In this document: positions 1 to 54,574 of the stretch, piece after piece | Layout of the letters: every line of letters begins with the position of its first letter | Numbering within the stretch: the first letter of the stretch is position 1 | Sequence record: PV660452 | From: Escherichia phage LF82-9 | Reading direction: 5' to 3' (one strand) | Length of the DNA: 64,000 bases | Notes under the pieces: generated by a model | Told to the model about the DNA's origin: nothing | What the model saw: the letters and a program-made list of their open reading frames with translations, nothing else | The model's database searches: none | Program-made: the position numbers and the translations under genes

Positions 1-754
1 TTTGATAGTACTCAGTTTTAGTTGGTTTAAAAATTCGAATCAGCGCTTCTTCAGGATACTTATTTCTGTCGAAGCTATTATTTGGATCGGTTATATAAAG
101 CGGTTGACCTAATTGAATTGCACATTCAACCACTTGTTCAAAACGATAACATGGGTCACTAATTCGAAATGGATGAAAAATACCATCTAGATGAATAGGA
201 GCCAAATCACCTACAAGACGCTGCATGATGGAAGGACGTATAACTTTCTGAGTTACGATAATCTTATTACCATCTGCACCGGCGTTAACCAGCACTTCTT
301 TTTGACGTTCATTCAACACGGTAGTTTGAAGTGAACGATTAACTGACAACATATCGGTTTTTAAGAATTCGTCAATATAAAAACGTGGTTTATTAGGGTC
401 TGCCGTGATATTGAAATTGAATTCTACATCAAAAGCGCCGTCATATCCAGTGATATCTGTTATTAGAAAATCACAATCATAATAAGCAATTAATGAATCA
501 ACCACAAATTCATTTTCAGACCAGAAATATTTACGAGTGTTATACGCGTTATCTTTATACCATAATGGAACAAACTTAAATTCCGGGAAAAGACGTTCAC
601 ATTCTTTAATATCAGATGCATTACGTGGATATGTAATCACATCACCTGGATTAGCACGGTGCAAATGAAGTTGGAAGTTGCCATCCTTAAGGATAGCATA
701 CTGTCCAGTTTCATAAGACCGCATACTCAAGATAGGTACGCGGAAAATAGCCAT
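1..754 (-). CDS. hypothetical protein, partial (continues past window start), at the position T4 gives to beta-glucosyltransferase; candidate DNA sugar transferase
   Basis: Hand translation of minus strand is open from ATG 754..752 to position 1 (MAIFRVPILSMRSYETGQYAILKDG...), start overlaps stop of gene 42 homolog; no similarity to T4 Bgt visible by eye. Confidence 0.5.
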   Translation of the reverse strand, partial: MAIFRVPILSMRSYETGQYAILKDGNFQLHLHRANPGDVITYPRNASDIKECERLFPEFKFVPLWYKDNAYNTRKYFWSENEFVVDSLIAYYDCDFLITDITGYDGAFDVEFNFNITADPNKPRFYIDEFLKTDMLSVNRSLQTTVLNERQKEVLVNAGADGNKIIVTQKVIRPSIMQRLVGDLAPIHLDGIFHPFRISDPCYRFEQVVECAIQLGQPLYITDPNNSFDRNKYPEEALIRIFKPTKTEYYQ

Positions 755-1470
755 TAGTCAAGGAATCCTTTAACATAATCAAAATCACGTTCAAACACAT
801 GGGCACTTACCATGGTATGAGTATAATCACCAACTTCTACACCACATTCGTTAGCGATATAATGAAGTAATTTTCCTTGGAGATAAAAATCCAACTGCAT
901 AACAACAGCACAGTTCTGAGAACGCATATGACAGTGGGTATAAAGCTTACCATCGCGAATATAATAAGTCACTGAGTCAGTACATGGATATTCAAGTGTT
1001 TCGTCCGAATCAAGCAAAGCCTGATCAGAACTTTCTAGAATTTGGAACACAACTCTTCGAGAGTTAGGTTTCTCTTTAAGTTCTTTTAGAAGAGCTGGTA
1101 ATTGGGCCGCAATGCGAGGACCATAGAAAGTGTTGAAGTTCGCCGGCAAAGCGTCTGATTTAGGTTTAGAAATAAATTTAGCGACATTAGGATATGCCTT
1201 AAACGCTTCTTCTGCATCAGTACCACCAGAAATCATAAACTTCCAGAAGTCTTCGGCATATTCATAAGAGATGCGGTTAATACGTGGGTCGGTCATTTTG
1301 AATGATGATGGATTGTCAACAACTACTGTCATGGACCCGATTTCATTACAACGTCCAATACGAGAATCAGTTACGAATTCAGGATTTTCTAAAATTTCAC
1401 GATTGACTGCTTTAAATGCGGCTTGAAAATCTGCGGCTTTGATATATTTCATTGTGTTATGTTTTCCCAT
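754..1470 (-). CDS. 42: dCMP hydroxymethylase (gp42 homolog, thymidylate-synthase fold), divergent from T4
   Basis: Motif PCTDSVTYYIRDGKLYTHCHMRSQN aligns with T4 gp42 MCTNTVQYLIRDKK..MRSND (catalytic Cys; Asp at cytosine-specificity position); ATG at 1470 with GAGGT SD. Confidence 0.8.
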   Translation of the reverse strand: MGKHNTMKYIKAADFQAAFKAVNREILENPEFVTDSRIGRCNEIGSMTVVVDNPSSFKMTDPRINRISYEYAEDFWKFMISGGTDAEEAFKAYPNVAKFISKPKSDALPANFNTFYGPRIAAQLPALLKELKEKPNSRRVVFQILESSDQALLDSDETLEYPCTDSVTYYIRDGKLYTHCHMRSQNCAVVMQLDFYLQGKLLHYIANECGVEVGDYTHTMVSAHVFERDFDYVKGFLD

Positions 1471-1512
1471 GTTTACCTCAATACAATTTATTATATACTC
1501 AATTCGTAAAGC

Positions 1513-1752
1513 TTATTTGAATTTCTTGGCAATGTTGATATAACGTAAAGCTTCAGAATCTATACTTCCAAGAACACTATGAAGGAATGCATCAGTGTAG
1601 TATTCCAATTGAACAGGTTCTTTAATCACTTTAGCCGCTTTGGTTTCAAACAGGCCCATAAGGGCCTTTTTAAGAATTTGTTCGTTAGTGTTCAGTTTTA
1701 TAGTCAAAATCTCTTCATTAAGTTGGTGGTTAAAAGTTTTTCTAGAAATCAT
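1513..1752 (-). CDS. hypothetical small protein
   Basis: 79-aa ORF co-oriented between the Cys-rich ORF and gene 42. Confidence 0.4.
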   Translation of the reverse strand: MISRKTFNHQLNEEILTIKLNTNEQILKKALMGLFETKAAKVIKEPVQLEYYTDAFLHSVLGSIDSEALRYINIAKKFK

Positions 1753-2909
1753 TCCGGGTACCTCAAAGCGTCATCAGAGTTAGTTATATCAATAATAGAT
1801 ATAGAGTTTTCTGATAACCCATTTTTAGATAACTGACGTTTATAATATCTTTCACAATATGTACACGTCGTCCCGCAGATTTCATTAGCACAATCGAAAT
1901 CTGGATGTCTGAACCACCTTTTTTCTAAAAAACCGTCTAACAATGAGGTTTCAATATTTACTGTATGTGAAAACTCAGTCTCATTTTCAAGAGTGAAAAT
2001 AGTCTCTAAAGGCTTCCACAGTTCTAACAAATTACCTTCAAACTTTTCAGAAGCGTATGCTTCAAGAACTTTCAAAATGTAGTCTGTGCTACCTGTACGT
2101 CCTGAAACTTTGAATTGAGTGATACCAATATCATTATAAAGTTTCAAATCTTGAGGACGAACAAAACGAGTTCTCAACCAGTTAAATGGGTCTGTATCAC
2201 GAGCTTTAATGCAGTGTTGCATTGGATATCCATTTAAGGATTTAGCATCATCAGCTGTAACATCAGTACTATGGAAAATATAGCAAGAGTCACGATAACT
2301 ACAATGTGTTGTATACCCTTTACCAGCATTAGAACAGAACTCATTTACAAGAACTTCAAATATTATATTGTTCTTATTGCAAAACTCTGCTGCACGCTTC
2401 AGGAAAGAAACTGAACGGTTCTTATGAATTCCACAGCAGACCTTTTTGATATTGTATTGGTCATGTAAGTATTTTATTTGAGTTACAGCATCGACATGTA
2501 GAATTGTTGAAACTTCAATCTCAATGTCTTTATTGACTTCACGAACAATTTCCATAACAACAGGGTTAGCGATAGTAATACGCCATACGCCTATTGACCA
2601 AAGATACTGAACATAATCCTGAATAGCTTTCTTCTTCCACTCGACTAGTTCTCTTTTTGAACCAGGATTTATCGTGTTGAGTGTATAGTTAAAGCAAATA
2701 CCTAATTCGTTACAACGTTTAACGTAATCTTCTAACATCTTTTTGTCAACGTCAGGAAGCCTAAAATCAGGTCTGGCTGCTACAAAAGCCATTTCTCTTG
2801 TAGAGCCATATACTTCGTTTATCAAGCTATTAGGATAGGTTTTATTGAGCTCTACGATTTTATCAAGAAGAGCTAAATCAAAATTCGTTCCGATTTTAAA
2901 AGTATTCAT
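1749..2909 (-). CDS. hypothetical Cys-rich protein in the sugar cluster (C-terminal CxxxCx5CxxC cluster; possible metal/Fe-S binding; function unknown)
   Basis: 386-aa ORF, ATG at 2909; C-terminal CANEICGTTCTYC motif; weak resemblance to U32-type enzymes not verifiable by eye. Confidence 0.6.
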   Translation of the reverse strand: MNTFKIGTNFDLALLDKIVELNKTYPNSLINEVYGSTREMAFVAARPDFRLPDVDKKMLEDYVKRCNELGICFNYTLNTINPGSKRELVEWKKKAIQDYVQYLWSIGVWRITIANPVVMEIVREVNKDIEIEVSTILHVDAVTQIKYLHDQYNIKKVCCGIHKNRSVSFLKRAAEFCNKNNIIFEVLVNEFCSNAGKGYTTHCSYRDSCYIFHSTDVTADDAKSLNGYPMQHCIKARDTDPFNWLRTRFVRPQDLKLYNDIGITQFKVSGRTGSTDYILKVLEAYASEKFEGNLLELWKPLETIFTLENETEFSHTVNIETSLLDGFLEKRWFRHPDFDCANEICGTTCTYCERYYKRQLSKNGLSENSISIIDITNSDDALRYPE

Positions 2910-2965
2910 TTTTTTGCATCTCGCGTTAATTGATGCGATGGTTTTTGCAGGTCTTACTTAAATTA

Positions 2966-3367
2966 TTATAGATTTGGTTTATATGATTTAAATGTTTCGA
3001 ATTCGCCTTTATTCATAAGAGCTTTGAATTCGTCAGGACGCATAGCTTTGTCGTCGATAATCCAATCATATACTGGTTTATGTGTTAGCAAATTATGGTA
3101 CTTCAAACCAATGTTTTCCAAGTTCTGAATCAGACTTGGGAGAATGTCAATTGCTATACGACCAGGACCTACCGACTTCATACCACGGGCAGTGTAAAGC
3201 GTTATGGTATGCCCTGCATCATACAGAGCATTAATGGCAGACACCATTTCGACGTCTGGTTTGAAGTTCACGTAATCACGATTGTTATTCCACTCTGTTA
3301 TACAATCATCGACATCAAAACAAAGATTAAGCATGTTTTCTACACGGTGCATTAGATTCGTTCCCAT
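2966..3367 (-). CDS. HAD-superfamily phosphatase/phosphomutase-like protein
   Basis: N-terminal FDVDDCITEW matches HAD motif I (DxDx[T/V]); 133 aa; start uncertain (overlaps upstream gene by 16 nt). Confidence 0.6.
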   Translation of the reverse strand: MGTNLMHRVENMLNLCFDVDDCITEWNNNRDYVNFKPDVEMVSAINALYDAGHTITLYTARGMKSVGPGRIAIDILPSLIQNLENIGLKYHNLLTHKPVYDWIIDDKAMRPDEFKALMNKGEFETFKSYKPNL

Positions 3368-5037
3368 TGATGAGTGATATCGCCACCGATTGGACGATAA
3401 GAAACACCAGTTTCTTTATCAGTTAGTACCCATTTACCAGGATTTTTTGTAATCAGAGTAGCCGTTACAGGTTCTGCTACGTCATAACTAATAGAGCCGT
3501 CTTGAAGTACACGGCCCATGTTACGTAATTGCTTAGTCAGAAGTTCCATACCTTTATAATATGCGGCTACCGCTTTAAGTGGATTATTCTTGAAATAACC
3601 ACCTAATGCAATCCAGATAATTGCTACGGCCAAATGATGATACTCGTTAAACGAACTCATCTTTCCATATTTGTAAACTAATGGATTGATGTTAATAGTC
3701 ACATTACAAGTTGTTTCATCAATAGTAAACTGTCCCCAGGTCGGATTAGCATTGAATTCATCATAACCTGAAACAGCATAAAGCACTTTAGCTTCATCGT
3801 ACAATTTTGGCCCGTAAATCTTGGTTTCGCCAAAATATCCACGAGGGTCGATAAACTTGACTTCGCCGTTATCAGTAATCATAGTATTACTGAAGTTTGG
3901 GTCACCGTGAATAACAGAGTACTGTCCCTGAGAACGGTTATGATAACGAATAAGATGTTCTAAAGCTTGTTTCAACATTGGCTTCAGACGTCCAATTTTA
4001 GTGTAGTTCACGTGTGTGATTTTACCGAATGAATCAATCAATGGCTGAATGCTTTCACAACGATCAATAACTTTCGTATAGAACTCTTTAGTGAAATCAC
4101 AGCGAACAGTTTCAGGACTTACAAAATAAGTGTCCGTGCTGAATTTCAGTGCATCTAAAATTGCATCAACAATTTGTGGACGAGCAAGACTTGATTTGGA
4201 TTTAATATATTCAAATGCCGGCTTACCTTTAATACGTTCCATTTCAAAATTATTTTCATTTACCGAAACTAACTGAGGAACTGAATCTGATTTCACTTTC
4301 AAATACCATGAAATCTCATCTTTTTGAAGAGCTCGACCTTGTTCGGTTAACGCGAATTTAGTTACAGTTTCTTCGCCAATTTCAACTGCATTAAAACTAC
4401 GATTCAGTTCACGAACTTCATGAGCCTTTTCAAGTTTAGGCATATCACCTAAATCAATTAGATTCATAAGCTCTGATTTATTGAATGCACTGCCGTAAAG
4501 GAATTCTACGAAATCACGGCCTTTGCAGTATTCGTGAATTTCCTCATCAGTAGAACCCATGTAAAATTCCCAATCTTTGAACTGATAAATTCCTACAACA
4601 TTACCGCCTGTTGAACCTACGTTAGTGATATTTTCACCATCGAAATTATATCGACATTCATCACCCTTAACATAGATTGCGTTAACATTCCAAGACCATG
4701 AACCAAAATCGGGAATAATATCACACCAGTTAACAATTACATTATGGCCATCTAAATCTTTATATAATTTAGCAAGAGCATAAGCAGAACCATACGCTTC
4801 ATCAACTGTACGAATAGTCACATTGAACCCTTCTTGCTCACAATAAGCTCGAACAGTTTCAGCAAATTTTGAATGAACTACTACAATAATTTCATCTGCG
4901 CCAAGGTCAGAATAAATTGTATACAAATTGCTCAGAATAGTGTCTTGTTTATAGTTAACAAGCACCTTAGGAATATGATGCGTTATTGGATACAAACGAG
5001 TTGCCAGTCCAGCACCAAGAATAACAGCTTTTTTCAT
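3352..5037 (-). CDS. bifunctional sugar-phosphate nucleotidyltransferase (N-terminal) / sugar kinase-like (C-terminal, APH/choline-kinase fold)
   Basis: N-terminus MKKAVILGAGLATRLYPITHHIPKVLV resembles GlmU/RmlA-type NTP-transferase G-x-G-x-R motif; C-terminal HGDPNFSNTMITDNGEVKFIDPRGYFG resembles kinase catalytic loop HGDxxxxN...D. Confidence 0.75.
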   Translation of the reverse strand: MKKAVILGAGLATRLYPITHHIPKVLVNYKQDTILSNLYTIYSDLGADEIIVVVHSKFAETVRAYCEQEGFNVTIRTVDEAYGSAYALAKLYKDLDGHNVIVNWCDIIPDFGSWSWNVNAIYVKGDECRYNFDGENITNVGSTGGNVVGIYQFKDWEFYMGSTDEEIHEYCKGRDFVEFLYGSAFNKSELMNLIDLGDMPKLEKAHEVRELNRSFNAVEIGEETVTKFALTEQGRALQKDEISWYLKVKSDSVPQLVSVNENNFEMERIKGKPAFEYIKSKSSLARPQIVDAILDALKFSTDTYFVSPETVRCDFTKEFYTKVIDRCESIQPLIDSFGKITHVNYTKIGRLKPMLKQALEHLIRYHNRSQGQYSVIHGDPNFSNTMITDNGEVKFIDPRGYFGETKIYGPKLYDEAKVLYAVSGYDEFNANPTWGQFTIDETTCNVTININPLVYKYGKMSSFNEYHHLAVAIIWIALGGYFKNNPLKAVAAYYKGMELLTKQLRNMGRVLQDGSISYDVAEPVTATLITKNPGKWVLTDKETGVSYRPIGGDITHQWERI

Positions 5038-5078
5038 GTTGTGGTCCTCATTGGTAAGTAGGAGTATTGTACACTATT

Positions 5079-5222
5079 CTAGTTAAAGCATTCATACTTT
5101 GCCTGTAGACCAATCATAATCCATCCAATTACAAGTGTTGGAATCATTACTGGAGCCGTTAAGCTCCAGTAGATAGTCATGACAAGCATCAATAGTAAAA
5201 GTCCTATTGTTATTGCTTTCAT
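5079..5222 (-). CDS. small hydrophobic protein (47 aa), not in ORF track
   Basis: Hand translation MKAITIGLLLLMLVMTIYWSLTAPVMIPTLVIGWIMIGLQAKYECFN; ATG overlaps stop of SIS gene (ATGA); lies where T4 has imm. Confidence 0.4.
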   Translation of the reverse strand: MKAITIGLLLLMLVMTIYWSLTAPVMIPTLVIGWIMIGLQAKYECFN

Positions 5223-5854
5223 TGCTCGCCTCGTAACATGGCACCTAGTGCACCGCCTGGATGGAACTTAAGGAAATCATTAGAGGTAAATCCACGTTCA
5301 GACGAAAGGTTGATAGCAAAAGTATCGATAAGCGCTAACAATAATGTAGTGGACATGGTCGGAGCCAGAGAATTCTCATCAACCTCTACTGCGATGCCTG
5401 TACAGAAAGAGTAATCAAAAAGGGCTTCATTTTCTTGTGGAATGTCTGGGTTACAATGCAACAGAATCTGTTTGACGTTCGGTCGAATCATTTTAAGATG
5501 CTTAGCCACGCCTATCATTTCTTCAGTTTTACCAGAACGACTAATATGAATCAACACATCATTAGGCGCAATAAATCCTGCATCACCGTGAGAATAATGC
5601 CCAGTGTTCAAGTACATACTTGGGATACCGAGTGAAGCAAATGTCTCAGAAGCTTTAGTTGCAATATTAGCATTCTTACCAACACCTGTAATAATTACTC
5701 GGCTTTCATAATTACTAAGTCCAGGGCGTCGAAGAGTTTCTAGAATAGCATTATAACGAGCAGGGTTTTGACTAATTACTTTGGCCATAGCGGCCAAAGA
5801 AGAAGCTTGTTTTATGATTGCGTCAATAGCGATATTAATAGGAGTAGTTTTCAT
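5219..5854 (-). CDS. SIS-domain sugar-phosphate isomerase (KdsD/GutQ-like arabinose-5-phosphate isomerase candidate)
   Basis: TGVGKNANIATKASETFASLGIPSMYLNTGHYSHGDAGFIAPNDVLIHISRSGKTEEM matches KdsD-type SIS motifs (GxGKS..ASTGTPS..HGDLG..ISNSGES). Confidence 0.75.
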   Translation of the reverse strand: MKTTPINIAIDAIIKQASSLAAMAKVISQNPARYNAILETLRRPGLSNYESRVIITGVGKNANIATKASETFASLGIPSMYLNTGHYSHGDAGFIAPNDVLIHISRSGKTEEMIGVAKHLKMIRPNVKQILLHCNPDIPQENEALFDYSFCTGIAVEVDENSLAPTMSTTLLLALIDTFAINLSSERGFTSNDFLKFHPGGALGAMLRGEQ

Positions 5855-5894
5855 ATTTCTCTCATTTAATTAGTTTACCGTCCATGGCATTATA

Positions 5895-8606
5895 TCAAAA
5901 ATCGAACATATCGAAGAGAGATGCTTTCTTCTCGTAATCGAGTTTCGCTGCTGATGTGAATCCTTCAAGTGGTTTAATAAATGTCTTCTCAAGGAGAACA
6001 GTGTAGTCCATCCAATGAAGTACGTCGTCTTTAATTAAATCTGTGATTTCAGTACCAGAAGGCCATGCGATACATTTATCACCGAACGGGTTTCCTTCAC
6101 GTAAAGGCAGAACATATACTTTTTCACCTTCTACAACTTGTGGAGCATCAATATTACCTTTGATAGCTCGGTTATATGTCAGAATTCCACGAATATGGAA
6201 CGGACATTTAGGACCAGGGAATCCACCAACGTCATATTTAGCAATGTTATTCGCAGAAGATACCGACGCGATGCTAATATAATTCAATTGACGGAATTCT
6301 TTTTCAAACTCTTTAAAATATTCTTGTAATGATTCTTCACCTTCTTGAAGCATACGGCGAATACATTCTTTAAGAGCTTTCTGTACTGCTTTAGGGGTCG
6401 AAGATTTCTGTGTTTCGAGACCCATGATTTTGAGTTTAGGCTCAGCGTATCTGGTTCCTTCCATATCCCACACGTTTAATGCATAACGTTTCTTACCAGT
6501 CCAGAATCCGCCAATACCTTTAGAACCGAGTGGAGGACCAGCGATAGCTTCTCGGTCCATGAACATTAAGTGTTGTTTATTGTTCATGTATTCACACATT
6601 TCACGGAAACCTCTATCAATAGCCGGTTCCATACGTTCACGAGCGAACTTATCTAAGAAGTCTACCCAATGGTTGGTATCACGGAATTTAGATTCACCAA
6701 CCTTATCAATAATTTTATCTGCAGATACGTAAATAGAGTCTGTATCACCATAAAGAACGAAAGCTTCACCTTCTGTACCACAAACTTCGTTCAGATATTC
6801 ATTAACTTTACGTTCAATCCACTGTAAAGCCATTTGCCCGAATGTTGTGATTGCAGTAGCATTACGCAAATCATAATAACGGAACCAAACGTTTCCAAGT
6901 GCACCATAAAGTGAGTTGATGAGCAATTTACGGTTAATCTGTGCAGTCATACCTGCAACTTCAGTACGTTGAGCTCTAAACAACATTTCATTAAGAGATT
7001 TAGCAGACAACTTTTTAATCTTTTCTTTAATCTCGTCAGTGAAGTCAAAACGATAATCAACATCTAATGGTTCATCAACAGAAAGATTAGGATTATGTAA
7101 GGCTTCTTTAATTATTTCACCATTACGTTGAGCTGCAAGCATGTAACCTTTATGTTCTTTACGTTGATTAAAGACCTTAGTGATTTCAGTTGGAACTACA
7201 CCATCACGGTCTTTATAATACATCATGCCGTTAGGAGAGCAACTGTACACATCTGAAGGACGTTCAGCGATTGCGTTAATATAATCATGCAGTGGAGCTA
7301 CTTTAAACGTTCCTGCTATTGTTTCCGGGCTAATATTCACTTGGCGAATAATACTTGGATACAGGGATGTAAGGTCGAAACTCATTACATATTTGTATCG
7401 ATTTGGAATAGGTTCCTTAACAAAAGCACCGGGATAAGGTTGAACCGGGTGAGAACGACCTTGTGGAATCACCTTGCTCTGCTCTTTAAGGCTATTAAAA
7501 ATAATAGCATCCCATGTTTTAATTGGGCTAAACACAGATTGAATCTGTATCTTAGCATAATAACCCATGTCCAAACTCAAGTTGATGAACTGACGCTTAG
7601 CATCAATTTGCAATACACGATACACGTCGATAATGTTATAAGAAATATACCGTTGGTGATTGCTTTCACGAAGCTTAGAAATAGGGCCGTCATATTTCAG
7701 TTTACCAACGTTCAATTCAAATTCTGAAATGTAATCCAGAGAATACGACGGTTGATTGGTAAAAGAGAATTTTTTGTAAAGGTCGATATAATCAAGAACA
7801 GAGATACCGAACAATGTAATGATTTCACGAGAACCATACATGTTTTCGATAACTTTAACACGAGTTTTACGATGTGGTGATAAACGTTTCGCAGTAGATT
7901 CGCCAAAAATATTCTTGATTCGGTTATACACATATGGAATATCAAATGACTCAACGTTCCATCCAGTCAAAATGACAGGAGTTTTCTGTTGCCAGAAGTT
8001 GAGATATTCCATCAACAATTCTTTTTCGTTATCGAACGGCATATAAATGATTTTATCGATAATTTCAGATGGAACTTCATCACCGCCTTGTTCTTGAAGC
8101 TTAGCCGCAATTTCGATAGACCATTCTTCTACATTACCATACGGAGAATTCAATAGATCAAATACGTAGAACCTGTCGTCAATTGAGTCATAATGGGTGA
8201 TAGCATCAATCGGATGTTTTGCTTGTGACGGCTCAGGGAACCCATCCGGAGATGTTACTTCGATGTCGAAGTTAGCCACACGAATTTTTGTATGGTCGTA
8301 TTTGATTTCATAGTTATAAGTGTCAGACAAATACGCCAATTTGAAATCGTCCATGCCGAGTGCTTCAAGTCCGATATCTTCCATGCGTTTAATCCATTGG
8401 GAGGCATCACGCATATTAGCGAACAACTTACGAGTACACGGCTTACCGTAGATATCGAAATATTTCGTAGCCTGACTTTCTGGGCAATGAGCAAACAATG
8501 ATGGTTTATATTCTACTTCACGAGTACATTCACGGCCATTAGAATCGATGTAACGTTCAAAAATTGAATCACCAATCTGTTCAACCGTTAAGTAAAATTC
8601 TTTCAT
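5895..8606 (-). CDS. 43: DNA polymerase gp43
   Basis: 903 aa; matches RB69/T4 gp43 as recalled, incl. DIE exonuclease and YGDTDS polymerase motifs. Confidence 0.97.
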   Translation of the reverse strand: MKEFYLTVEQIGDSIFERYIDSNGRECTREVEYKPSLFAHCPESQATKYFDIYGKPCTRKLFANMRDASQWIKRMEDIGLEALGMDDFKLAYLSDTYNYEIKYDHTKIRVANFDIEVTSPDGFPEPSQAKHPIDAITHYDSIDDRFYVFDLLNSPYGNVEEWSIEIAAKLQEQGGDEVPSEIIDKIIYMPFDNEKELLMEYLNFWQQKTPVILTGWNVESFDIPYVYNRIKNIFGESTAKRLSPHRKTRVKVIENMYGSREIITLFGISVLDYIDLYKKFSFTNQPSYSLDYISEFELNVGKLKYDGPISKLRESNHQRYISYNIIDVYRVLQIDAKRQFINLSLDMGYYAKIQIQSVFSPIKTWDAIIFNSLKEQSKVIPQGRSHPVQPYPGAFVKEPIPNRYKYVMSFDLTSLYPSIIRQVNISPETIAGTFKVAPLHDYINAIAERPSDVYSCSPNGMMYYKDRDGVVPTEITKVFNQRKEHKGYMLAAQRNGEIIKEALHNPNLSVDEPLDVDYRFDFTDEIKEKIKKLSAKSLNEMLFRAQRTEVAGMTAQINRKLLINSLYGALGNVWFRYYDLRNATAITTFGQMALQWIERKVNEYLNEVCGTEGEAFVLYGDTDSIYVSADKIIDKVGESKFRDTNHWVDFLDKFARERMEPAIDRGFREMCEYMNNKQHLMFMDREAIAGPPLGSKGIGGFWTGKKRYALNVWDMEGTRYAEPKLKIMGLETQKSSTPKAVQKALKECIRRMLQEGEESLQEYFKEFEKEFRQLNYISIASVSSANNIAKYDVGGFPGPKCPFHIRGILTYNRAIKGNIDAPQVVEGEKVYVLPLREGNPFGDKCIAWPSGTEITDLIKDDVLHWMDYTVLLEKTFIKPLEGFTSAAKLDYEKKASLFDMFDF

Positions 8607-20217: not shown

Positions 20218-20688
20218 TTAATCATGTTTCCACACCCCATCGGTATTTGACCAAAGTCGCTGATTATCTGATCCTCGCCACAGCTTTTTGGTCGGAAGAT
20301 TTTTCTCATACTTCCCATCAATAATAACATCAACATATTTAAGCATTTTTAGTTGTTTAATATCTTCAAACTTATATCCTGTCCACAACCAAATGCTTTT
20401 ATTGGGATAAAGATTTTTAATAGTTTGAACCACAGAGTGAATCACATCTCGGTTATCAGGATAGAGAGGGTCACCTCCGGTTATAGTCAATCCTTCTATA
20501 TAATCATTATTCAAACATTCAATTAATTGTTCTAGTGTTTCACCAGTGAATGGAATACCATTTCTAGCATTCCATGTTGATTTATTATAACACCCTTCGC
20601 ATTTATGCAAACAACCTGTGACGAAAAGAACGACCCTACAACCAGGGCCATTCACAAAATCGCAAGGATAAAATCTATCATAATTCAT
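20218..20688 (-). CDS. nrdG: anaerobic ribonucleotide reductase activating protein NrdG (radical SAM)
   Basis: CLHKCEGC radical-SAM cysteine motif; position next to nrdD. Confidence 0.9.
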   Translation of the reverse strand: MNYDRFYPCDFVNGPGCRVVLFVTGCLHKCEGCYNKSTWNARNGIPFTGETLEQLIECLNNDYIEGLTITGGDPLYPDNRDVIHSVVQTIKNLYPNKSIWLWTGYKFEDIKQLKMLKYVDVIIDGKYEKNLPTKKLWRGSDNQRLWSNTDGVWKHD

Positions 20689-22502
20689 TGGTGTTTAACC
20701 CTATGCATGATTTCTTTATTTTTGCCGAGATTAAATCCACGTTCGTTCGGGTTCCCCAAATAACCGCACGTTCTTCTTATGGTGTTCATCTTTTTAGGAT
20801 CAGTTTCTCCACAAACTGAACAAACAAATCCATTTTCAGTAGGAGTCATCTCATGGGTACTTCCACACGTAAAACATTTATCTACTGGCATGTTAACACC
20901 AAAATAATCTAAATGTTGTGCAGCATAATCCCACACGGCCTCAAGACCTTTTAAGTTATTTTTCATATCAGGAAGTTCAACATAAGAAATGTGACCACCT
21001 GTCGCAATGAAATGATATGGCGCTTCACGAGAAATCTTTTCAAACGGAGTAATATTTTCTTCTACTGAAACATGGAAACTATTAGTGTACCAGCCTTTAT
21101 CAGTAACATCCTTTACACTTCCATATTTTTCTGTATCAAGTTTACAGAAGCGATAACAAAGGTTTTCAGCAGGAGTAGAATACAAGCTAAAAGCAAATCC
21201 GGTTCTTTCAGTCCACTGTTTAAGACGAGCATTCATTTTAGTTAAAATTTCTTGCCCAATATCACGACCGACAAGAATATTCAATTCGTGAATACCAATG
21301 TATCCTAAAGACACTGAACTTCTACCGTTTTTAAATAACTCAATTATGTCGTCATCAGGTTTAAGACGAACCCCGAATGCACCTTCTTGGTAAAGAATAG
21401 GAGCAACAGTCGCTTTAACACCCTTTAAAGAACTAATTCTACACATCAAGGCTTCAAAACACAGATCCATTCGTTCATTAAATAATTCGATAAATTTCTG
21501 TTCATTGAACTGTGTTCCAATATAAGAATCTAATGCGATACGAGGAAGATTCAGTGTTACAACACCAAGATTATTACGTCCATCAAGAATTTCATTACCA
21601 GTCGAATCTTTCCATACGCTCAAGAAACTACGGCAGCCCATTGGAGAAACTGGAACTGAAGAACCGGTAATAGCTTTATTATTCTTAACAGAAATAATGT
21701 CAGGATACATTCTTTTGCTTGCACATTCTAACGCAAGTTGTTTAATATCATAGTTCGGATCATCTTTATAAAGATTAACACCTTCTTCAACAAACATAAC
21801 AAGTTTAGGAAAAATAGGAGTTATTCCATCACGACCAAGACCTTTAATCCGATTTTTCAGAATTGCCTTCTGAATCATTCGTTCAGTCCAATCGGTTCCC
21901 GTACCAAATGTAATTGTTACAAAAGGCGTTTGTCCGTTTGAACTAAAGAGAGTATTTACTTCATATTCATAAGCTTGGAACGCATCGTATACGTCTTTTT
22001 CTGTTTTAGATTGGGCATAATTCAACGCATCAGCGATTTGCCATTTTTCTGCATCCTCAATATGTTTTGCATAGGTGCGTTTAACATAAGGAGAAAGAAC
22101 TTTATCGACATTCGCAAATGTAGTTCCGCCATACTGATGTGAAGCAACTTGTGCAGTAATTTGTGCCATAATTGCAGTAGCAACACCAATCGATTTAGGC
22201 GTTTCAATTTGAGCATTGCCTAATTTAAATCCATTCTCAAGCATCCCCTTTAAATCGACTAAACAGCAATTAGTAAATGGAAGAGCAGGAGAATAATCAA
22301 TATCATGCATATGAATGATTCCGCTTTCATGCGCATTCATAATAAAAGACGGGACCATATTTTTGGCAATGTGCTTAGACACAATACCAGCCATAAGGTC
22401 CCGTTGAGTTGGAAAAACACGAGAATCTTTATTAGCATTCTCGTTCAAAAGATCTTTATTAGTTTTATAAATTAATCCTTCAATTTCTTTTTCAATTTTC
22501 AT
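20685..22502 (-). CDS. nrdD: anaerobic ribonucleoside-triphosphate reductase NrdD, uninterrupted
   Basis: 605 aa; C-terminal glycyl-radical motif RTCGYLG and Zn-ribbon CxxC..CxxC. Confidence 0.95.
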   Translation of the reverse strand: MKIEKEIEGLIYKTNKDLLNENANKDSRVFPTQRDLMAGIVSKHIAKNMVPSFIMNAHESGIIHMHDIDYSPALPFTNCCLVDLKGMLENGFKLGNAQIETPKSIGVATAIMAQITAQVASHQYGGTTFANVDKVLSPYVKRTYAKHIEDAEKWQIADALNYAQSKTEKDVYDAFQAYEYEVNTLFSSNGQTPFVTITFGTGTDWTERMIQKAILKNRIKGLGRDGITPIFPKLVMFVEEGVNLYKDDPNYDIKQLALECASKRMYPDIISVKNNKAITGSSVPVSPMGCRSFLSVWKDSTGNEILDGRNNLGVVTLNLPRIALDSYIGTQFNEQKFIELFNERMDLCFEALMCRISSLKGVKATVAPILYQEGAFGVRLKPDDDIIELFKNGRSSVSLGYIGIHELNILVGRDIGQEILTKMNARLKQWTERTGFAFSLYSTPAENLCYRFCKLDTEKYGSVKDVTDKGWYTNSFHVSVEENITPFEKISREAPYHFIATGGHISYVELPDMKNNLKGLEAVWDYAAQHLDYFGVNMPVDKCFTCGSTHEMTPTENGFVCSVCGETDPKKMNTIRRTCGYLGNPNERGFNLGKNKEIMHRVKHQ

Positions 22503-53839: not shown

Positions 53840-54574
53840 TTACCTTAAGATTTTTTCAATTTTAGAATAAAGCTCTTCTAACGAGCCGTCGTTTGTAATA
53901 ACTAAGTCGCCTTCTTCAATAGGCAACCCAGCTTCTGTAATATGTTTATCAGTGGATTCCGTACCAGAGCGAACCACATGAATAACTGTAGCACCCATCG
54001 CTCTAGCGGTTTCCATTTCATGGACTTGTCGTGTATCGGTCACAACGTAGTAATCGAAATCACTTCCAATATAATCCATATAGTTTAATGCAAAAAGCTT
54101 AACCCAATACATACGGTCAAATAAATTAACGACAACATCCGTACCGAGGGCTTGCATAAGACGGCGGATCGACCATGTGTCGTTGATATTATTTATAGCT
54201 TCACGCAGGGCTTCATATGGTTTAATATCTAGATATGAATATCCACCTTCTAACGATGATAATACTTTAACATTATTAATTGGTAAATATTGACTTTGCA
54301 AATAAATTAGCGCTTCTTCCAATAATTCAATAACATCCAACTTATTGAGATTTAATGGTGTTTCACGGTCGTATCCAATGCCTTCAAAGTATTCGTATTT
54401 CAACTCTGTGAATACATCAGGATTTTCAGCATGTCTACGTCCCCAGGCTATTGCTAGAGCGTCTTTAATTGGATATGCTAATTGGTATTTTACGGATTTA
54501 AAGTTTGAATTGATGTAATCAGCAGTAGTGTCTTTACCACTACGTTTGATGCCACTTAAAAAGATTAGCTCCAT
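53840..54574 (-). CDS. 1: deoxynucleoside monophosphate kinase gp1
   Basis: MELIFLSGIKRSGKDTTADYI.. close to T4 gp1 P-loop. Confidence 0.93.
   Translation of the reverse strand: MELIFLSGIKRSGKDTTADYINSNFKSVKYQLAYPIKDALAIAWGRRHAENPDVFTELKYEYFEGIGYDRETPLNLNKLDVIELLEEALIYLQSQYLPINNVKVLSSLEGGYSYLDIKPYEALREAINNINDTWSIRRLMQALGTDVVVNLFDRMYWVKLFALNYMDYIGSDFDYYVVTDTRQVHEMETARAMGATVIHVVRSGTESTDKHITEAGLPIEEGDLVITNDGSLEELYSKIEKILR

Follow-up and report, generated by a model that had tools for sequence, protein, structure and literature searches.

The genes between gene 43 and the gene 42 homologue

The first 8.6 kb of a 64,000-nucleotide stretch of Escherichia phage LF82-9 DNA (sequence record PV660452; the whole stretch is called the window below) contains genes on the minus strand only. 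Between the DNA polymerase gene 43 and a homologue of gene 42, it holds a block of genes for the synthesis of a sugar nucleotide, one of which encodes a cysteine-rich protein of the U32 family. This locus, and above all the function of its U32 protein, is the subject of the present analysis. Megablast places the window in Mosigvirus, with 99.1% identity to phage LF82-4. Over positions 1-5900, it shares 97.7% DNA identity with RB69, which an earlier sequence-only reading of this DNA had rightly named as the phage to compare it with. The block is no chance feature, since at least 80% of it is covered in 152 phage records and 154 records match with an identity of 95% or higher, in addition to the close match of RB69. 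Recent foreign insertion, judged by base composition, was rejected because the GC content of the block (0.33-0.41) does not deviate from that of its flanks.

Read along the minus strand, the gp43 gene (5895..8606), whose product is 61.5% identical to T4 gp43, is followed by the gene of a 211-residue protein consisting of a SIS domain only (5219..5854; RB69 gp55; Pfam SIS, E=9e-11), a predicted D-arabinose-5-phosphate isomerase. Next come a 47-residue open reading frame (ORF) of hydrophobic sequence for a predicted membrane protein (5079..5222; RB69 ORF054c; PHROG 3610, E=7e-27) and the gene of a 561-residue AfhE-like protein (3352..5037; RB69 gp52:53), whose domains suggest a UDP-arabinose pyrophosphorylase (N-terminal) joined to a D-arabinose-5-phosphate 1-kinase (C-terminal). 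The following gene encodes a 133-residue, AfhF-like protein of HAD type (2966..3367; RB69 gp51), a putative arabinofuranose (Araf)-1,5-bisphosphate 5-phosphatase. The 386-residue U32-family protein, probably an Fe-S protein (1749..2909; RB69 gp50), precedes a 79-residue ORF of no assigned function (1513..1752; RB69 ORF049c; PHROG 8601) and the 238-residue homologue of ThyA and gp42 (754..1470; RB69 gp48). The last gene is a glycosyltransferase gene homologous to RB69 gp46:47. Its 5' part occupies 1..754, with the ATG at 754..752, and the frame stays open for 251 codons and continues past the left edge (PHROG 3891, E=5e-131).

Genes in the block abut or overlap by 1-16 nt. The overlap is of 4 nt between the SIS gene and the 47-residue ORF, as between the U32 gene and the 79-residue ORF, and of 16 nt between the AfhE-like and HAD genes. 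The sequence-only reading had delimited the four larger ORFs (SIS, nucleotidyltransferase/kinase, HAD and cysteine-rich) exactly, and they do lie between gp43 and the gp42 homologue; the two small ORFs and the glycosyltransferase gene downstream of the gp42 homologue were absent from it. Its statement that T4 has only imm between genes 43 and 42 needs correction, the T4 interval being composed of imm.1 and imm, with b-gt after 42. In tblastn searches of the 64-kb window with T4 proteins, no homologue of imm, imm.1 or b-gt was found (alpha-gt was not among the queries).

The 47-residue ORF stands roughly at the position of the T4 membrane protein imm, to which it is not homologous. Homologues fill the same slot in phages LC53 and Entb_45, and one lies in a part of the Dhakavirus IME281 sequence that bears no annotation (L012:5723-5842). 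In Serratia phage LC53, a NUMOD3-containing, homing-endonuclease-like gene (L001:5352-5990) lies between the HAD phosphatase and U32 genes. It should be noted that the GenBank and PHROG labels of cluster homologues are systematically misleading: the HAD phosphatase appears as 'phosphoheptose isomerase' or 'capsule biosynthesis protein', AfhE as 'GlmU', the U32 protein as 'peptidase/collagenase' and the hydroxylase as 'thymidylate synthase' or 'dCMP hydroxymethylase'.

The modified base and its sugar donor

Mono- or di-arabinosyl-5-hydroxycytosine replaces cytosine in the virion DNA of RB69 (PMC13326640) and of Mosigvirus NP (PMC13390438), and in RB69 the replacement is complete (PMC13326640). 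Arabinose had been detected in RB69 DNA by Thomas et al. (2018), the base being then named arabinosyl-5-hydroxymethylcytosine (ara-hmC). Nuclear magnetic resonance and mass spectrometry show that in RB69 arabinose is joined to C5 directly through the oxygen of 5-hydroxycytosine (5hoC; Lee/Weigele/Peters NAR 2026, PMC13326640). RB69 gp48 makes 5-hydroxy-dCMP (5hodCMP) and not 5-hydroxymethyldeoxycytidine (5hmdC), labels its product with 18O when given 18O2 and contains a flavin resembling FMN, and the RB69 dNMP kinase gp159 converts 5hodCMP to 5hodCDP (PMC13326640).

The corresponding protein of the window matches Pfam Thymidylat_synt (E=2e-15) and, over its full length, the PDB entries 9iqc, 9ir2 and 9iqu (E=2e-161). 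These are presumably structures from phage HY126, so that the biochemistry would have been done on near-identical proteins. Alignment with E. coli ThyA and T4 gp42 shows C146, L143E, D169N and N177D; in E. coli ThyA numbering, N177D stands for dCMP specificity and D169N is the signature of the hydroxylase. The window protein reads '..YPC..' and 'MRSQNCAVVMQLD', where T4 gp42 has 'MRSNDVVFGFRND' and E. coli ThyA 'QRSCDVFLGLPFN'; in the region of residue 169 it reads 'MRSQN' against 'MRSND' in T4 gp42, and thus has Asn where the T4-type enzyme has Asp. Its identity to T4 gp42 is 24.8%, against the 61.5% of the gp43 pair. By these residues, the product of 754..1470 is predicted to be a flavin- and O2-dependent 5hodCMP synthase rather than a hydroxymethylase. 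The divergent, cytosine-specific gp42 of the sequence-only reading is therefore dCMP-specific, as N177D indicates, but D169N points to another reaction.

Pfam, NCBIfam and PHROG assignments of the block proteins agree with the published roles of the cluster. The SIS protein matches the NCBIfam models KpsF/GutQ (E=2e-32) and KdsD (E=7e-31), the PDB entries 5uqi, 3etn and 2xhz, the latter two being crystal structures of arabinose-5-phosphate isomerases, and PHROG 5670, arabinose 5-phosphate isomerase. The 561-residue protein carries Pfam NTP_transferase at residues 3-99 (E=1e-9) and weak kinase-family matches at 355-409; it also matches NCBIfam sugar-1-phosphate nucleotidylyltransferases, PDB 1jyk and PHROG 4098. 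Its gene is one intact ORF in the window, and the split into ORF052 and ORF053 in RB69 was explained as a sequencing error, ORF53_52c being a single 561-residue gene (Thomas 2018). The HAD protein matches TIGR01689, a capsule biosynthesis phosphatase model (E=2e-13), PDB 9iqw (E=4e-87) and 1xpj (E=1.5e-10).

For phage HY126, PMC13326640 gives, citing He et al. 2026, a route in which the isomerase turns ribulose-5-phosphate into Araf5P, the kinase domain of AfhE makes Araf1,5P2, the Mg-dependent HAD phosphatase AfhF leaves Araf1P, and the nucleotidyltransferase domain of AfhE makes UDP-Araf. The activities of the SIS, AfhE-like and HAD proteins of the window are predicted to be those of this cluster. 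The SIS isomerase would yield D-arabinose-5-phosphate from ribulose-5-phosphate, the C-terminal kinase domain of the 561-residue protein would add the 1-phosphate, the HAD phosphatase would strip the 5-phosphate and the N-terminal nucleotidyltransferase domain would produce UDP-arabinofuranose. The donor proposed in the sequence-only reading, an NDP-arabinose made from ribulose-5-phosphate, is in keeping with both the domain assignments and the published pathway. Of the 'HAD phosphatase/mutase' named there, the phosphatase stands and the mutase does not, arabinose 5-phosphate being converted to the 1-phosphate by a kinase and then a phosphatase, through the 1,5-bisphosphate.

On the side of the base, the ThyA homologue would hydroxylate dCMP at C5 with flavin and O2, and the phage dNMP kinase, a gp1 homologue encoded on the minus strand at 53840..54574 (Pfam DNMK, E=1e-96), would phosphorylate 5hodCMP toward the triphosphate, 5hodCTP then taking the place of dCTP in replication. 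The left-edge glycosyltransferase would attach the first arabinose to the 5-OH, and the gene of a second transferase lies elsewhere in the genome. The left-edge gene is conserved in position in six related phages, at 44-68% identity, and its homologues come after the ThyA homologue in LC53, Entb_45, Lazarus, Thanatos-2 and IME281. RB69 gp46:47 was assigned as the first arabinosyltransferase, and UDP-Araf serves as donor for DNA arabinosylation in vitro (PMC13326640). The gene at 1..754 is, by its sequence, the predicted DNA arabinosyltransferase 1.

Very probably, then, the block is the ara-5hoC DNA hypermodification cluster of RB69-type phages. It shares with RB69 gp45-gp55 and the HY126 Afh cluster the same genes in the same order and the same ThyA-homologue signature, and its HAD protein and ThyA homologue are near-identical to the solved structures 9iqw and 9iqc. 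There is no substantive difference, save that the 561-residue gene and the in-window part of the glycosyltransferase gene are uninterrupted here, whereas sequencing errors interrupt both in the RB69 reference. The cluster itself was known from earlier publications, and the sugar-nucleotide reading adds nothing new to it. ORF53_52c and ORF055c were put forward as UDP-arabinose genes by Thomas (2018), so that the link between genes and pathway, offered in the sequence-only reading as its own inference, was right in outline but had been in print since 2018 and again in 2026.

That reading had a non-glucose sugar on a C5-oxygenated cytosine, which the published chemistry of RB69-type phages bears out, but took hmC made by the divergent gp42 as the acceptor and a mutase-type step between isomerase and nucleotidyltransferase. 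The domains do fit a sugar-nucleotide pathway, and the same genes and the arabinose of RB69 had led to ara-hmC in Thomas 2018. This version is nevertheless very improbable: the base is 5hoC with a direct C5-O-arabinose ether link and the product of RB69 gp48 is 5hodC (PMC13326640), the hmC assignment is termed erroneous in the 2026 paper on Mosigvirus NP (PMC13390438), the window protein has the D169N signature, and the mutase is contradicted by the kinase and phosphatase route as PMC13326640 relates it from He et al. That the block is instead a moron remodelling host surface sugars (Kdo, capsule or lipopolysaccharide (LPS) heptose) is scarcely credible, for all that GenBank labels such as KpsF, GlmU, phosphoheptose isomerase, capsule biosynthesis protein and peptidase, a KdsD/KpsF-like SIS protein and a HAD protein of a capsule phosphatase family recall it: the products are traced to DNA, with UDP-Araf as donor in vitro and cytosine fully replaced in RB69 (PMC13326640), and the cluster lies among replication genes beside a base-modifying enzyme. 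An assignment to LPS heptose, named in the sequence-only reading as evidence against its proposal, was looked for and not borne out; it would call for a SIS protein of GmhA type, a heptose bisphosphate phosphatase of GmhB type and a kinase/adenylyltransferase of HldE type. There is no GmhA model in the NCBIfam match list of the SIS protein, which scores as KpsF/KdsD/GutQ and is of arabinose-5-phosphate isomerase type; the HAD protein matches 9iqw and the EcbF/BcbF capsule phosphatases, and 'phosphoheptose isomerase' is in the homologues a PHROG or GenBank name only.

The T4 glucosyl-hmC system occupies the same locus and follows the same logic: an enzyme of the ThyA family acts on dCMP ahead of replication, gp1 phosphorylates what it yields, and a glycosyltransferase encoded directly downstream of it puts sugar on the DNA. 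The two differ in the group added (hydroxymethyl against hydroxyl), in its source (methylene-THF against flavin and O2) and in the sugar (glucose against arabinofuranose). T4 draws on host UDP-glucose, whereas the phage of the window must make its own donor. Some relatives lack part of this supply. The clusters of Klebsiella phage Clarke_MM3 (L009) and Dhakavirus IME281 (L012) are without a SIS arabinose-5-phosphate isomerase, and their AfhE-like proteins are about 43% identical to that of the window; these phages presumably rely on host KdsD/GutQ for arabinose 5-phosphate. A Tmk-like kinase gene, which follows the glycosyltransferase gene in the arrangement of the window, immediately precedes the ThyA homologue in IME281 and lies ahead of the U32 gene in Clarke_MM3, upstream of the ThyA homologue there too.

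The U32 protein and the chorismate mutase gene of its relatives

The U32 and 79-residue genes are present, and unexplained, in the RB69 and HY126 clusters as well. The U32 protein matches Peptidase_U32 (PF01136) with E=7e-11 and 42 bits against a cutoff of 22.4. Its AF2 model (pLDDT 90.8) has a TIM-barrel fold, and the top PDB match in Foldseek is the U32 protein 5d88; direct sequence comparison gave no match to a solved structure at E<=1. Eight cysteines are conserved without exception in 46 distinct homologues (40-100% identical), in the spacing C192-x10-C203-x5-C209-x23-C233 and C340-x4-C345-x3-C349-x2-C352. An FK.xGRT motif is common to the phage U32 proteins, TrhP, RlhA and UbiU, and C209 is aligned with C176 of RlhA.

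The characterised U32 members RlhA, TrhP and UbiU/UbiV are all O2-independent hydroxylation factors. RlhA forms 5-hydroxycytidine (ho5C2501) in 23S rRNA and TrhP forms ho5U34 in tRNA, both in a prephenate-dependent manner, and UbiU/UbiV, which bind [4Fe-4S], hydroxylate ubiquinone precursors with an oxygen atom from prephenate, the proven donor. In the discussion of Lee et al., other pathways of pyrimidine hydroxylation are mentioned, with the papers on RlhA and ho5U, as using no homologues of the 5hodCMP synthase (PMC13326640); the family shared by gp50 with RlhA and TrhP goes unremarked there. The authors of the paper on Thanatos state that they have no hypothesis as to where the hydroxyl comes from.

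In related phages, the U32 gene is followed by a gene for a chorismate mutase (CM) of the CM_2 family, which overlaps the U32 stop codon in LC53 (E=2e-11), Entb_45 (E=2e-10) and Thanatos-2 (E=8e-8). The U32-CM pair of Thanatos-2 stands at a different position in the cluster. Among 15 T4-like loci, CM was detected in 13, and it is carried by 51 phage records; where the annotation or the fetched locus shows its site, this is between the U32 gene and the ThyA homologue or, in Thanatos, immediately behind U32. The hosts of the 51 records overlap the host genera of U32-bearing phages, a comparison of genera in which the record lists were not cross-checked. The phage CMs retain R11, R28, K39, E52, S84 and Q88, that is, six of the eight active-site residues of EcCM. 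Set against AroQ/EcCM, the slot after U32 is thus filled by a CM_2 protein with intact catalytic residues in Winklervirus, Kanagawavirus, Klebsiella phages, Yersinia phages and Thanatos, whereas the 79-residue ORF that fills it in the window is no detectable member of this family.

The possibility that the 79-residue ORF is a diverged CM was rejected, as it has no Pfam match at E<=10, reaches an hhalign probability of 0.2% against 15 phage CMs and keeps only K39 of the EcCM catalytic residues. Its homologues are confined to Mosigvirus and are 80-96% identical between clusters, compared with 99-100% for U32 in the same genus; truncation to 45-58 residues affects about one third of the database clusters, and the ORF changes more quickly than the genes around it. 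Its appearance is that of a gene in decay, or of a replacement, in the chorismate mutase slot.

The U32 gene itself was found by tblastn in 221 phage records, and the hosts among those listed are all Enterobacterales or Shewanella, whereas ThyA-type homologues extend to phages of Acinetobacter (57 records) and Rhizobium (22 records). It is at least 99% identical in 151 records, against 45 for the ThyA homologue, and its identity to the Thanatos-2 protein is 82%, against 72%. The Acinetobacter phages Lazarus and DLP3 have the remainder of the cluster (isomerase, kinase-nucleotidyltransferase, HAD phosphatase, 5hodCMP synthase, glycosyltransferase and Tmk-like kinase) in the same order. They differ by having no U32, no CM and no 47-residue ORF, by extra glycosyltransferases for tri-arabinosylation and by a host that is a strict aerobe. 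The window phage encodes the anaerobic ribonucleotide reductase NrdD (605 residues) and its activase NrdG (156 residues), at 20218..22502, and is therefore equipped for anaerobic dNTP synthesis. An O2-requiring cytosine hydroxylase is puzzling in a phage thus built for oxygen-free replication.

Distant homologues and the proposed function of the U32 protein

The phage U32 subfamily comprises 467 representative clusters at 50% identity (E<=1e-30). A distant set of 37 loci, from metagenomic and IMG/VR viral contigs that include some of ~130-290 kb, encodes U32 homologues at 40-58% identity, and 7-10 kb were scanned on either side; several of these loci are near-duplicates of one another, which lessens the weight of the counts that follow. 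Within 1 kb of U32, a CM domain was found at 11 of the 37 loci and a DAHP synthase (DAHPS) at seven, four of them confirmed DAHPS-CM fusions, so that 13 loci have one or the other. DNA glycosyltransferase homologues are present at 25 loci, AfhE-like proteins at 17, SIS proteins at 10 and dCMP deaminase at seven, and a ThyA-family gene, an ordinary thymidylate synthase, at one only. Typical orders are GT-SIS-AfhE-like-(DAHPS-CM)-U32, GT-U32-TAGT-dUTPase...UDP-galactopyranose mutase and U32-CM-GT-AfhE-like, where GT stands for glycosyltransferase. In the phages of these loci, U32 holds the place that the ThyA-type hydroxylase has in RB69.

The four fusions, with DAHPS N-terminal and CM_2 C-terminal, are on IMG/VR viral contigs (L044:8411-9430, L047:7302-8354, L048:8332-9384 and L058:11079-12194), within ~0.6 kb of U32 or overlapping its end; DAHPS stands alone in L013 and L033. 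That these DAHP_synth_1 proteins are instead KDO8P synthases, supplied by the SIS isomerase, was rejected, because DAHPS models score 113-237 bits against 30-63 for KDO8PS and because four of them carry a fused CM. There appears to be no earlier description of shikimate-pathway genes in phage DNA-modification clusters.

These data argue, at somewhat better than even probability, for the U32 protein as a prephenate-dependent, O2-independent pyrimidine C5-hydroxylase, which would provide an anaerobic route to 5hoC. It would be a second hydroxylase, an Fe-S enzyme with prephenate as oxygen donor like RlhA, TrhP and UbiU/V, and would let the phage keep making 5hoC while its host grows anaerobically. 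Its likeness to the cellular U32 hydroxylases lies in PF01136, the TIM barrel, cysteines consistent with an Fe-S cluster, the FK.xGR motif and the genomic tie to a prephenate supply, and the chemistry proposed, C5 hydroxylation of cytosine, is that of RlhA. In RB69-like phages, U32 would be the anaerobic twin of the O2-dependent 5hodCMP synthase, just as an O2- and flavin-dependent enzyme is paired with a U32 enzyme for one product in UbiI/H/F with UbiU/V and in TrhO with TrhP. Prephenate would be supplied by the translationally coupled CM in related genera. Since the 79-residue ORF is not a CM, it would have to come from host PheA/TyrA in the Mosigvirus studied here. In many other phages, including those of the ~130-290 kb contigs, U32 would be the sole apparent hydroxylase, with a phage-borne CM or DAHPS supplying the oxygen donor. 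For the phage subfamily as a whole, the chance is about even that its members are prephenate-dependent, O2-independent C5-hydroxylases acting on pyrimidines in deoxynucleotides or DNA.

By a rough estimate, an RB69 genome contains ~63,000 cytosines, and a burst of 100-200 phages would take ~6-13 million prephenate molecules. A demand of this size could explain the CM and DAHPS genes of phages.

Several observations weigh against the proposal. A profile of the phage U32 proteins gives only remote, fragmentary alignments with E. coli RlhA, TrhP, UbiU and UbiV (at most 13.6 bits), and their cysteine spacing is unlike the canonical CX6CX15CX3/4C, with an extra invariant CX4CX3CX2C at the C-terminus; the presumed substrate, a deoxynucleotide or DNA, also differs from those of the cellular enzymes. 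Expression of a gp48-type ThyA homologue alone suffices for 5hodC aerobically (PMC13326640), so U32 must be dispensable under laboratory conditions. Nor is it obligatory in enteric hosts, as the cluster of E. coli Dhakaviruses, IME281 for example, contains neither U32 nor CM. Klebsiella phage Clarke_MM3 carries U32 without CM, and the 79-residue ORF of the window is no CM either. The host pattern is confounded by phylogeny, U32 phages being mostly Tevenvirinae and the Acinetobacter phage examined belonging to Twarogvirinae. In the literature covered, no link was found between phage 5hoC and U32, chorismate mutase, prephenate or anaerobiosis; a role for the protein may be assigned or excluded in He et al. 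2026 and Mahler et al. 2025, which lie outside that scope.

Alternatively, U32 could have its place in the sugar branch and reduce or epimerise the pentose or its nucleotide. In a table of Lee et al., gp50 is entered as 'sugar or heterocycle reductase' (PMC13326640), which also counts against the hydroxylase proposal, and the Durham paper has 'epimerase'; the gene lies between those of the HAD phosphatase and the base-modifying enzyme, the fold is a TIM barrel, and an NAD-epimerase-like gene adjoins some distant homologues (L013 and, weakly, L014). This is unlikely, because the cluster occurs without U32 in Dhakaviruses and in Acinetobacter phages, and one of the latter, DLP3, has been shown to produce this same arabinofuranosyl modification. 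Since (tri)arabinosyl-5hoC is made by Acinetobacter phages (PMC13326640), U32 is unnecessary for the sugar pathway, of which the sequence-only reading had made it a member. Moreover, its homologues are found amid quite different sugar genes (TAGT and UDP-galactopyranose mutase, with no SIS or AfhE gene, in L015 and L041) and beside dCMP deaminase with no glycosyltransferase in reach (L003, L014 and L060), and a role in the sugar branch leaves the linkage to CM and DAHPS unexplained.

RlhA and TrhP being prephenate-dependent RNA hydroxylases, and T4-like phages carrying tRNA genes, U32, with CM in the relatives, could also hydroxylate RNA, forming ho5U34 in phage or host tRNA or ho5C in rRNA and so tuning translation, its DNA-modification neighbours being there by chance. 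We regard this as quite improbable: among the tblastn matches listed, U32 occurs only in phage groups with a 5hoC-type ThyA homologue, and its distant homologues lie amid genes for DNA glycosyltransferases, dCMP deaminase, dUTPase and thymidylate-kinase-like and deoxynucleoside-kinase proteins.

Some distant neighbourhoods deserve mention in their own right. In L015:4777-13179 and L041:7575-16281, a GT-U32-TAGT-dUTPase...UDP-galactopyranose mutase cluster has no ThyA homologue; it may specify a galactofuranosyl-5-hydroxypyrimidine DNA modification relying on U32 alone. In L003:7447-9086, L014:6504-8083 and L060:9540-11107, on large phage contigs (one of 466 kb) with genes for split or UDG-fused DnaE-type polymerases, U32 comes directly after dCMP deaminase, which is a hint that a uracil nucleotide (5-hydroxy-dUMP) may be substrate or product there. 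On an 86-kb contig that also encodes a dockerin-bearing glycoside hydrolase (L004:8001-15428), U32 is flanked by genes for a 5'(3')-deoxyribonucleotidase, an NMN-transporter-like protein, a deoxynucleoside kinase and a radical SAM/SPASM protein, along with a second, very divergent U32 (22% identical) and a nucleoside 2-deoxyribosyltransferase-like gene. This deoxynucleoside-centred neighbourhood may be that of an anaerobic bacterium or of a prophage in one.

Although the published hydroxylase depends on O2, these phages have gut and sediment bacteria as hosts and carry an anaerobic ribonucleotide reductase. If the proposed function of U32 is true, it would account for how full replacement of cytosine is kept up in anoxic hosts, and would give a reason for the chorismate mutase and DAHP synthase genes of phages. 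U32 would then be the first DNA-directed member of the class of prephenate-dependent hydroxylases, and many more phages would have glycosylated 5-hydroxypyrimidine DNA without the ThyA-type marker now used for its prediction. The modification status of such phages could vary with oxygen, and with it their sensitivity to restriction and CRISPR, which would be relevant to phage therapy and engineering.

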